Part shown: piece after piece, positions 6,515 to 8,543 of the stretch
Numbering within the stretch: the stretch's first letter is position 1
How the letters are laid out: every line of letters starts with the position of its first letter
Notes under the pieces: model-generated
What the model was told of the DNA's origin: nothing
What the model saw: only the letters and a program-made list of their open reading frames with translations
Databases searched by the model: none
Made by a program: the position numbers and the translations under genes
From: an uncultured Acidobacteriota bacterium
GTDB lineage: Bacteria > Acidobacteriota > Thermoanaerobaculia > Multivoradales > UBA5704
Direction: 5' to 3'
Assembly: GCA_963700145.1 (NCBI GenBank)
Contig: OY969474.1
Coordinates: forward strand, 1,280,001-1,344,000
DNA: 64,000 nucleotides

Positions 6515-7792
6515 GTGACGGCGACCGACATCCGGCGCACCATCGACGCAGTCTGGAGGATCGAGTCGGCCCGGCTGATCGCCGGGCTGGCGCGGATCGT
6601 CCGCGACGTCGGCCTCGCCGAGGACCTGGCGCAGGACGCGCTCGTCGCGGCGCTCGAGCGGTGGCCCGAGGCGGGCGTCCCGGACAAGCCGGGCGCCTGG
6701 CTCATGGCCGCCGCCAAGCACCGGGCGATCGACCAGCTGCGCCGGCGGGCGCTGCTCGAGCGCAAGCACGACGAGCTGGGGCGCGAGCTGGAGGCCCAGC
6801 GGGAGGAGGAGGCGCCGGACCTCGACGCCGCGCTCGACGACCCGGTCGGCGACGACCTCCTGCGCCTAGTCTTCATCTGCTGCCACCCGGTCCTGGCGAC
6901 CGAGGCGCGCGTGGCCCTCACCCTGCGCCTCCTCGGCGGCCTGACCACCGAGGAGATCGCGCGCGCCTTCCTCACGCCGGTGCCGACCGTCGCCCAGCGC
7001 ATCGTGCGCGCCAAGCGCACCCTCGCCGAAGCGGGCGTGCCGTTCGAGGTGCCGCGCGGCGGCGAGCTGGCTGCCCGTCTCGCGTCGGTCCTGGAGGTCG
7101 TCTACCTGATCTTCAACGAGGGCTACGCGGCGACCGCCGGCGACGACTGGATGCGCCCGGCGCTGTGCGAGGACGCGCTCCGCTTGGGCCGCATCCTGGC
7201 CGAGCTGGCGCCGCGGGAGCCGGAGGTCCACGGCCTGGTCGCGCTGATGGAGATCCAGGCGTCGCGCGCGCCCGCCCGGGTGGGCCCCGCGGGCGAGCCG
7301 ATCCTGCTCCTCGACCAGGACCGCGGGCGTTGGGACTACGTCCTCATCGGGCGCGGCCTGGCGGCCCTCGAGCGCGCCGAGCGGCTCGGCGGCGCCGGCG
7401 GCCCATACGCGCTGCAGGCCGCGATCGCCGCCTGCCACGCGCGGGCGCGGACGCCGGAGGAGACCGACTGGCGGCGCATCGCGGCGCTCTACGAGGCCCT
7501 CGCCAGGCTCGCGCCCTCCCCCGTCGTCGAGCTGAACCGGGCGGTGGCGGTGGGGATGGCGTCCGGTCCGGCGGCGGGCCTGGCGCTGGTCGATGCGCTG
7601 ACCGCGGAGCCGGCGCTCGCCGGCTACCCGTTCCTGCCCAGCGTGCGCGGCGACCTCCTCGCCAAGATCGGCCGCCACGCCGAGGCGCAGGTGGACTTCG
7701 AGCGCGCGGCGTCGCTCACCGCCAACGCCCGCGTGCGGGCGCTGCTTCTCAAGCGCGCCGCCGCCTGCGCGGGGGAGGCCCAGTCGCCTTAG
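6515..7792 (+). CDS. ECF sigma-70 factor with C-terminal TPR extension (ECF42/DUF6596 type)
   Basis: LAEDLAQDAL, DDLLRLVFICCHPVL, VYLIFNEGY, YALQAAIAACH, PSPVVELNRAVA. Confidence 0.92.
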   Translation: MTATDIRRTIDAVWRIESARLIAGLARIVRDVGLAEDLAQDALVAALERWPEAGVPDKPGAWLMAAAKHRAIDQLRRRALLERKHDELGRELEAQREEEAPDLDAALDDPVGDDLLRLVFICCHPVLATEARVALTLRLLGGLTTEEIARAFLTPVPTVAQRIVRAKRTLAEAGVPFEVPRGGELAARLASVLEVVYLIFNEGYAATAGDDWMRPALCEDALRLGRILAELAPREPEVHGLVALMEIQASRAPARVGPAGEPILLLDQDRGRWDYVLIGRGLAALERAERLGGAGGPYALQAAIAACHARARTPEETDWRRIAALYEALARLAPSPVVELNRAVAVGMASGPAAGLALVDALTAEPALAGYPFLPSVRGDLLAKIGRHAEAQVDFERAASLTANARVRALLLKRAAACAGEAQSP

Positions 7793-7925
7793 TTTCGGAC
7801 CGCCATGGCGGACGACCTCGATCACCGTCTCCATGAGGCCATTGCGAAAGGCGCAAGGAGACCAGCAGGGCTCGCCGGCCTCCCGAGCCCTCCCCTACCT
7901 CAGGCCAGCTGCTAGCGCCAGAGCG

Positions 7926-8186
7926 TTAGCACCGGCTGATGCCGCAGGTCACCGGCGGAATGCCCCAGCGGGTCTTGCAACAGGCCTTCCACCGGCCGAA
8001 ATTCGGTATGTTGAAGCACTTGTTACCGAAGAACGGCAGCGTGAAACACTTCCGCCCGCCGCCGACCTGCACGCATGGGGTGCACAGACTTAGCTGGGGC
8101 GCCACACCGGGCTCGCTCCAGGCGGCCGCCCCCGCGAAGGAGCTCATCGACCGGTCCGCGGGCTGAGATTGCGTTGGCATGCGCAT
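7926..8186 (-). CDS. Putative RiPP precursor A (86 aa): 31-aa leader ending GVAPQ plus a 55-aa cationic core with 8 Cys
   Basis: AAGGAG RBS 9 nt before ATG; co-oriented downstream of a PatA-type protease; N-terminus MRMPTQSQPA shared with the neighbouring small ORF. Confidence 0.75.
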   Translation of the reverse strand: MRMPTQSQPADRSMSSFAGAAAWSEPGVAPQLSLCTPCVQVGGGRKCFTLPFFGNKCFNIPNFGRWKACCKTRWGIPPVTCGISRC

Positions 8187-8273
8187 GACTGTGTTCTCCT
8201 TCCTCGTGTGAGGTAGTCCTTTTGGCGCTCGGATTACCGCAGCCGCGATGGGCCTGCGGCCGGTCGCGCCGCG

Positions 8274-8477
8274 TCACTCTCCCGACTCGTCGTACTCTCC
8301 CGACTCGTCGTACTCTCCCGACTCGTCGTACTCTCCCGACTGGCCCCCTTCTTCGCCGTCGTCGTGCTCGTCCTCCGCGCCGTGCGGGAGGACGCCGACC
8401 TGATCGGGGTTCAGGCCGCGCCATGGGCGACGACGGGCGTCGCGGGCCGCTGGCTCCGACTGGGTTGGCGGACGCAT
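8274..8477 (-). CDS. Putative RiPP precursor B (67 aa): leader ending GVLPH plus a polyacidic (SGEYDE)3 core
   Basis: GAAAGGAG RBS 8 nt before ATG at 8477; N-terminus MRPPTQSEPA is 8/10 identical to precursor A. Confidence 0.7.
   Translation of the reverse strand: MRPPTQSEPAARDARRRPWRGLNPDQVGVLPHGAEDEHDDGEEGGQSGEYDESGEYDESGEYDESGE
8277..8341. repeat. 18-bp perfect tandem repeat, about 3.6 copies, coding for SGEYDE
   Basis: ctctcccgactcgtcgta x3 plus a partial copy. Confidence 0.95.
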
Positions 8478-8543
8478 CGTGCCTTCTCCTTTCGGGGTTA
8501 ACCCCGTCCGCACGCCGGGCGGGGCGGAATCAACAACATCGGC

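Follow-up and report, generated by a model that had tools for sequence, protein, structure and literature searches.

A candidate four-disulfide cationic miniprotein from a minimal PatA-type protease cassette in an uncultured Acidobacteriota bacterium

The open reading frame at 7926-8186 (minus strand) of the window, that is, the whole 64,000-nucleotide stretch of DNA that was analysed, is a real, conserved and unannotated gene. It encodes a leader followed by a Cys-rich core and belongs to a small cassette with a subtilisin-like protease and an acidic peptide. We give about an even chance to the reading that the protease releases a linear, unmodified four-disulfide beta-sheet miniprotein from this minimal mobile cassette, and that the product is probably membrane-active or antimicrobial, with the acidic partner as its shield.

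The gene starts with ATG and has a ribosome-binding site, AAGGAG, at 8201-8196, 9 nt upstream. Its 86-aa product is composed of a 31-aa leader with GVAPQ at its end and a 55-aa core (7929..8093, minus strand), which begins at codon 32, base 8093, directly 3' of GVAPQ. The earlier note on this DNA described a 55-aa, eight-Cys, cationic core without acidic residues and a precursor without a Sec signal. The counts are confirmed (8 Cys, 4 Lys, 4 Arg, no Asp or Glu, 5 Phe and 2 Trp; net charge +8, pI 9.5, ~6062 Da when oxidised), and by inspection the leader has no hydrophobic signal stretch. Homology searches recover 13 other proteins of 86-89 aa with 51-71% identity to the precursor. The conserved Cys spacing on which the earlier proposal hung is found, all eight Cys being invariant across these 13, and the leader is more variable. 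The dN/dS ratio is 0.14 for the core versus 0.35 for the leader (nine gap-free DNA sequences), and on this comparison the core is subject to purifying selection. A profile search of 1.84 billion representatives returns 47 clusters at E up to 0.001. Shadow ORFs are common in high-GC DNA and three further ORFs overlap 7926-8186, but a spurious frame with a Cys-rich composition by chance is a negligible prospect given the ribosome-binding site, the close homologues, the cluster representatives, the purifying selection and the conserved synteny. A composition like this is rare, as only eight of the 5474 ORFs of 60-120 codons in the genome have at least eight Cys in their last 55 residues. At least three further small ORFs of this genome have Cys-rich tails and resemble real peptides; they lack the cassette leader and are distant from the protease gene.

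Three features absent from the earlier note are a PatA-type protease-DUF gene two genes upstream, a leader with two boxes and the acidic partner. The genes lie on the same strand in the order protease-DUF, acidic peptide and, last, Cys peptide. The leader opens with an N-box, M-x-x-P-x-Q-x-x-P-x-x-R (8151..8186, minus strand), common to the acidic partner and other cassette peptides; M1 and P4 are invariant and R12 almost so in an alignment of 58 leaders. It closes with a C-box, GVAPQ (8094..8108, minus strand), whose Q31 is invariant in 14 sequences. GVAPQ resembles the PatA cleavage site, given as G(L/V)E(A/P)S (PMC10885120), and from this motif likeness we infer cleavage there. The precursor is most likely made in the cytoplasm and then cut after Q31, and it is highly probable that the PatA-type S8 domain would make this cut and release the 55-mer. 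Proteins of the PatB family (L070:9054-9272 and L073:9014-9211) have an N-terminal box similar to the N-box of the cassette leaders, and PatB may, on this resemblance, be recognised through the same element, as a substrate or a decoy.

The protease gene (8544..10634, minus strand; 696 codons, start codon uncertain) encodes a PatA-type subtilisin (D64/H98/S265) fused to a cyanobactin DUF, with no signal peptide seen. It scores 599 bits against TIGR03895 (cut-off 421) and has S8, PatG_D and PatG_C domains. The S8 domain aligns end to end with 4h6w (E 5e-81) and 4h6v (E 9e-77) and far more weakly with PatG (E 8e-38). The PatG matches start only at residue 98, a region that the PatA alignment spans, and there is no PatG insert. 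The DUF domain (PatG_D plus PatG_C; 8547..9344, minus strand) has a C-x5-C loop and the fold of PatG-DUF, 4uvq, to which its model (pLDDT 93) gives the sole clear structural match (E 4e-26, Z 28.7, rmsd 2.3, 253 aligned). The N-terminal half is an OB fold, with Z of 8.1 and 7.2 to pertussis-toxin B-type subunits and 6.7 to SSB, matches that show a common fold only.

Directly after the S8 domain, an internal Shine-Dalgarno motif, AAAGGAG, with in-frame ATGs at 9623 and 9617 (9615..9633, minus strand) is a probable separate start for a stand-alone DUF. In 60 fused genes, an SD-like motif accompanies the first linker Met in 26/57 loci versus 45/475 Mets within domains, a count made per Met in which related loci are not independent. 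The linker (9369..9545, minus strand) holds two cleavage-like sites, GVSPS at 9545 and GLSPS at 9383, each followed by CxC, and a site of this kind with CxC occurs in 42/60 fused linkers. The internal-start signal, the linker site and a subfamily in which the DUF is a separate gene together suggest a DUF that functions on its own after maturation by the protease. Free DUF may likewise be a product of canonical cyanobactin proteases, PatA in 4h6v having a Met at the position equivalent to the internal start.

The DUF, probably also present as a free protein through its internal start, would be the best candidate for a carrier or folding helper. The carrier role is weakened because PatG-DUF showed no binding to PatE by NMR in the work of Mann et al. 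in 2014, whose available text leaves the function open (PMC4259220). The C-x5-C loop, which forms a disulfide in 4uvq, is present in 40/52 rows of fused DUFs; the split DUFs lack it, and a CxxC neighbour is found in 5/14 split loci, where the contig extends far enough. These motifs hint at the loop or the neighbour as a candidate thiol-redox helper. The CxxC protein is conserved and 75-95 aa long (L098:3353-3595, L102:813-1037, L104:181-468, L105:2296-2535, L106:1-186). The L098 copy matches no Pfam or NCBIfam family, and a redox or metal helper is possible. Elsewhere, in L116 (G049:C35:55776-59096), a diverged PatG_C protein immediately precedes an SpvB / FG-GAP gene, and a normal protease-DUF lies ~3 kb away from it.

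The disulfide pattern of the core can be read from natural variation. Among 55 sequences examined there are 53 distinct cores with a recognisable cut site (P0030 and P0032 lack one); P0022, P0027, P0031, P0033, P0036, P0038, P0040 and P0042-P0060 are omitted as partial or distant. The Cys count is even in 53/53 and eight in 50/53, the evenness being partly built in by retrieval with a Cys-rich profile. Acidic residues are absent from 46/53, and the charge has a median of +8 or +7, depending on leader type. The Cys of the core (Cys35, 38, 47, 57, 69, 70, 81 and 86; spacing 3,9,10,12,1,11,5) change in twos: C47 and C57 are both missing in each of two L011 peptides, C70 and C81 are both missing in P0034, P0037 and P0039, and variants in which C33 replaces C35 also have C71 in place of C69, both pairs being present in P0026, P0037 and P0039. 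C38 and C86 occur in every variant. As Cys are gained and lost in pairs, the family sequences imply the bonds C35-C69, C38-C86, C47-C57 and C70-C81 (I-V, II-VIII, III-IV, VI-VII), with C38-C86 assigned by elimination. The suggestion in the earlier note of four disulfides is thus supported by the paired changes.

One of five AlphaFold models of the precursor is confident (mean pLDDT 62 versus 36-42; pTM 0.33), with S-S distances unreadable. It has strands at 39-42, 45-50, 54-59, 62-72 and 79-85 (pLDDT 65-82), a disordered leader and no helix, and it places C47/C57 and C70/C81 across hairpins. Its all-beta amphipathic fold agrees with the amphipathic beta structure proposed before. Probably, although short of the confidence given to the cut, the core would form a five-strand antiparallel sheet with the four bonds above, two Pro-Gly hydrophobic hairpin tips and a net charge of +8. 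The tandem decamers reported earlier are present, with 6/10 positions identical, but the periodicity is modest, identity being 3-6/10 positions in the 40/53 family cores that fit the pattern. The periodicity is real and corresponds to two successive strand-turn units. A functional repeat is rejected, given this identity and the fact that the first hairpin can be deleted on its own.

Distant, longer cores (P0027, P0031, P0033, P0040, P0042-P0045, P0048-P0050, P0053-P0059; L012:8914-9180; L089:630-941) retain chiefly the hairpin C-x-x-L-P-x-x-G-x-x-C, which is therefore the best-conserved module of the larger family. P0060 (189 aa) has a signal-peptide-like start, an acidic middle and a C-terminal Cys domain that weakly matches the profile (E 9e-4); a secreted relative, perhaps eukaryotic, is one reading and a chance match the other.

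The label 'defensin-like' holds as an analogy but not as membership: the predicted connectivity is another one, no helix is predicted and the GXC gamma-core occurs in 0/14 homologues. The alpha- and beta-defensins and laterosporulin have six Cys with connectivity 1-6,2-4,3-5 or 1-5,2-4,3-6, which is not matched by an eight-Cys core with the pattern that covariation points to. Laterosporulin3 (6lwy) aligns to a moderate core model with Z 2.2, rmsd 4.0 and 41 aligned, tied with unrelated chains. The CS-alpha-beta peptides such as actifensin, described as C-X5-12-C-X3-C-X9-10-C-X4-5-C-X-C with a helix, two strands and a GXC gamma-core (PMC6989792), are ruled out by Cys spacing, the predicted helix-free fold and the absence of gamma-core patterns.

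There are nevertheless likenesses to known peptides. Laterosporulins (Brevibacillus) and actifensins (Actinomyces) are likewise ribosomal peptides of small size (4-6 kDa), unmodified and with disulfide bonds; as here, the actifensin leader is short (~32 aa) and the operon includes a subtilisin-like gene, and the alpha-defensin-like beta strands of laterosporulin recall the predicted core (all PMC6989792). Set against this, these bacteriocins have six Cys rather than eight, a different connectivity and no detected sequence similarity, and the helix, GXC gamma-core, GA/GG leader site and ABC transporters described for actifensin are not seen here (available part of PMC6989792). Eukaryotic defensins and protegrin-type beta-hairpin peptides resemble the core in being cationic, amphipathic, disulfide-locked beta structures matured by proteolysis. 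They differ in that the precursor here lacks a Sec signal, two of its four bonds would be local cross-hairpin ones and the acidic element has a gene and a leader to itself.

Searches with the precursor find no family in Pfam plus NCBIfam (nor do 19 family members in Pfam), no match among PDB sequences at E up to 1, no Foldseek match for the predicted structure at E up to 0.001 and a best VIA-align Z of 2.9. The Atlas feature search gives 0.76-0.78 for the whole protein, which are leads only, and nothing usable for the core alone. A new fold is not established by these negative results.

The acidic partner (8274..8477, minus strand; 67 aa) has the same leader type followed by 35 aa with 17 Asp/Glu and no Lys/Arg. 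An 18-nt tandem repeat at 8276-8347 builds part of this tail. Tail length varies from ~22 to 44 aa among the fused-cassette loci and, therefore, what is conserved seems to be the charge and not the sequence. An acidic ORF adjoins 27/30 core loci (25 by one filter, with L095 and L096 added by another); the L092 contig starts 52 nt upstream of the core gene, and no acidic ORF is seen in L094 and L105. In the GTDB comparison, which used the same filter and dropped three loci as too short, an acidic ORF lies within 1.5 kb in 3/77 DUF loci, exactly the three with the core, and in 0/74 others. The association thus spans both cassette types described below, yet it represents about two independent lineages. 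Animal alpha-defensins have an acidic pro-piece as counterpart, to which the partner can be likened by analogy, but it is encoded by its own gene. The co-processed acidic peptide might well act as a counter-ion partner that would keep the core soluble and harmless in the producer, a role to which we give a little less than an even chance.

The cassette lies in an inserted island (7778..11156) of GC 0.68, versus 0.77 and 0.755 in the flanks. The island is missing at the same site in G004, a genome of the same genus, where the flanking ECF sigma and DUF2784 genes directly adjoin. A diverged second copy (77%, 146 nt) of the 3' end of the flanking ECF sigma gene at 10759..10904 (plus strand) is a probable integration scar. 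Duplicates of this 3' end (10759-10904 and 7725-7774) bracket the island, and an integrase is absent. The DUF family is present in 5/61 related genomes, the organism's own included, and in 0/4 other genomes of the genus. The genome has one PatG_C locus and no second leader or protease copy, and no consensus promoter or terminator was found at the cassette. The DUF occurs in 12 plasmid records, all cyanobacterial or Streptomyces.

Cassettes of this kind are found in several phyla. The three-gene order is also present in L001, L002, L019 and metagenome loci. A GTDB genome scan with the DUF, from which the best 80 of 103 loci were kept, places it in Acidobacteriota, Planctomycetota, Pseudomonadota, Cyanobacteriota, Bacillota, Actinomycetota and archaea. 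A leader profile finds 131 small ORFs in 67 of these best 80 loci, mostly directly behind the protease, with the N-box M-x-x-P-x-Q-x-x-P-x-x-R, a C-box G-V-x-P-S/Q and cores that vary widely. At least four Cys are present in 95 of the 131, retrieved by the DUF alone, and 89/95 have an even Cys number. Most other cargo cores are near neutral in charge, and therefore the module is not generally a factory for cationic toxins. Across taxa, no recurrent tailoring enzyme, transporter, immunity gene or oxidase was seen beside the cassettes. The Pfam scan of the surroundings covered 50 flanking proteins, taken from the window and 14 other loci. Recurrent neighbours, found with crude ORF calling, are rejected as pathway genes and reflect shared insertion sites (CO-dehydrogenase and kinase regions).

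The core family itself is found on two cassette types. A metagenome scan yields 29 loci, 27 of them real and two spurious. Thirteen have the leader type of 7926-8186 and, where the contig shows it, a fused protease-DUF. Fourteen have an unrelated leader, M-x-L-P-x-F/M-x-A-E, a separate S8 gene, the small CxxC protein and a stand-alone DUF with its own leader and cut site. A tree of 61 DUF rows groups the ten fused cassettes that carry the core in a single clade (99/98) and puts the six split ones on a very long branch, the split group being sampled only via the core. Because the DUFs of the two types are 23-25% identical and the cores 44-58%, and given this tree, the sequences indicate either a transfer of the core cargo between cassettes or a cargo much better conserved than the machinery that serves it.

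Several variants of the cassette may be mentioned. In Alphaproteobacteria (L029:9666-9878, L035, L041, L045, L058, L065-L069, L072, L080), it ends with a conserved basic, nearly Cys-free leader peptide, two copies of which match no NCBIfam family. Two Yersinia species and some Alphaproteobacteria (L042:8874-9023, L043:8873-9022, L049, L056) have short Cys-free cores resembling amphipathic helices. L004, L006, L012 and L034 have two to four tandem DUF copies with peptide genes between them.

Antimicrobial activity of the released core is plausible. With about even odds, the core would attach to the anionic membranes of nearby microbes or to a target in their envelope, in the manner of defensin-like bacteriocins. 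The core may work like such a bacteriocin, matured in cyanobactin style, while a member of neither family. The largest gap in this account is the route of export and oxidation: neither precursor nor protease has a signal peptide, and no recurrent transporter is seen. The strong conservation of the core speaks more for a defined target or a structural role than for a lytic toxin of the fast-evolving kind.

A structural role is considered first. The protease-matured DUF, the acidic peptide and the cationic core could form a disulfide-cross-linked complex, coat or condensate, the core then being non-toxic. All three products have a cleavable site, the two peptides are oppositely charged, the core is strongly conserved and the DUF has a probable internal start, its own linker site and, in the second subfamily, its own gene; its N-terminal half is moreover of the OB fold, which often oligomerises (Z 6-8). 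Such co-assembly is nonetheless unlikely. The same DUF accompanies very different cores in the 74 other loci, which fits exchangeable cargo better than a tailored subunit, and the patchy distribution (5/61 related genomes) is that of conflict or secondary-metabolite genes. A Z of 8 or less shows a common fold only, and PatG-DUF ran as a monomer (PMC4259220).

Conservation of the core (dN/dS 0.14) and its invariant surface loop pattern would also be consistent with a folded ligand that has a specific, non-lethal target, such as a signal, adhesin, enzyme inhibitor or anti-phage peptide, and a LuxR-type regulator lies immediately upstream in L090 and L012. No receptor gene recurs, however, and a uniform charge of ~+8 together with hydrophobic tips is more usual in peptides that bind membranes, so we regard a ligand as improbable.

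As no export route was found, the Cys may remain reduced, which raises the possibility of a protease-released cytoplasmic peptide binding Zn, Cu or Cd through thiolates in the manner of metallothionein; the earlier note named metal binding as an alternative. Metallothioneins form metal-thiolate clusters and have a low aromatic content. The core does have CxxC and CC motifs, and the acidic partner could supply ligands, but the core lacks Asp, Glu and His and is rich in Arg, Lys and aromatics (seven). Its Cys come and go as cross-strand pairs in beta register, by which metal binding is judged less likely than disulfides. No metal-resistance genes recur nearby. Zn was bound in the PatG-DUF crystal, but by ligands that are not conserved (PMC4259220). 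Metal binding is thus quite improbable.

The relationship to cyanobactins and TOMMs deserves closer attention. Cyanobactin pathways (PatA/PagA; 4h6v, 4h6w, 3zxx; 4uvq; PatE and anacyclamide-type precursors) likewise have a PatA-type S8 domain and a DUF, above the TIGR03895 cut-off, and the cassette site G-[VI]-x-[PQ]-[SQ] resembles their G(L/V)E(A/P)S. Unlike them, the cassette has one protease, no PatG, PatB/C, PatD or follower, and an added acidic partner; its product is a folded Cys-rich core of 55 aa rather than a short macrocycle, and its range (Acidobacteriota, Planctomycetota, Pseudomonadota, Bacillota, Actinomycetota and archaea) differs. Cyanobactin clusters are described as always having the A and G proteases, a precursor and the B and C genes (available part of PMC4663559), and only the A protease and the precursor are present at the locus. 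The two small ORFs of the cassette show no PatB/C match in NCBIfam or Pfam, a search in which the PatB model matched L070. The leaders are related as well, TIGR04446 being matched weakly by one of 41 cassette peptides, at 20.8 bits and under the cut-off of 35. A search for LynF/TruF/PatF prenyltransferases finds none in the genome, nor in any control genome.

An ordinary precursor of this class, with Cys converted to thiazoles or the core macrocyclised, is therefore a very remote prospect. The PatA-family protease and cyanobactin-type leader speak for it, as do Atlas feature matches to PatB and DUF5837 clusters (0.76-0.77), which are leads only. TOMMs require a YcaO cyclodehydratase (PMC4603692), and no YcaO is found in the genome, which is 95% complete (the control matched in 5/14 genomes). 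There is one PatG_C locus and no PatG insert, and the stop codon immediately follows C86, leaving no follower; the core is 55 aa in all close homologues, compared with 3-20 aa in cyanobactins (PMC4663559). Because follower, PatG and YcaO are absent, neither a macrocycle nor heterocycles are expected, cyanobactin membership is ruled out and the whole reading is already largely refuted. Disulfides in cyanobactins are themselves held to form spontaneously (PMC4663559).

We return to the preferred reading of an unmodified, disulfide-bonded miniprotein with a probable antimicrobial role. Titles and the starts of abstracts yield no paper on the protease-DUF-peptide module; coverage of subscription journals was thin and an earlier mention is possible. 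Defensin-like disulfide peptides from bacteria are few, laterosporulins being the only ones before actifensin in the available text of PMC6989792. The core family would add a new four-disulfide scaffold to them, one for which both bonds and mass are predicted, the bonds from paired changes in nature, and which has a protease dedicated to it. It matched nothing in the libraries searched and represents a new form of leader-peptide maturation, its function being inferred only, and it may stand for a kind of antimicrobial peptide not described before from bacteria, though not a true defensin.

A broader proposal is offered tentatively, as one that we doubt more than we believe. The cassette would be a maturation system for disulfide miniproteins, free of tailoring enzymes and transporters and possibly ancestral to cyanobactin pathways. 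In it the DUF, a free protein by virtue of its internal start, would read the N-box as a carrier or oxidative-folding helper, the core would be an antimicrobial scaffold with a co-processed polyacidic antidote, and the two-peptide cargo would have passed between two cassette types separated by a deep split. What the cyanobactin DUF does has been an open question since 2014 (PMC4259220), and no setting for answering it is simpler than a cassette of only protease, DUF and peptides. If the shielding role is true, an acidic partner with a gene of its own, matured by the protease that also cuts the core, would be an uncommon way of protecting the producer.
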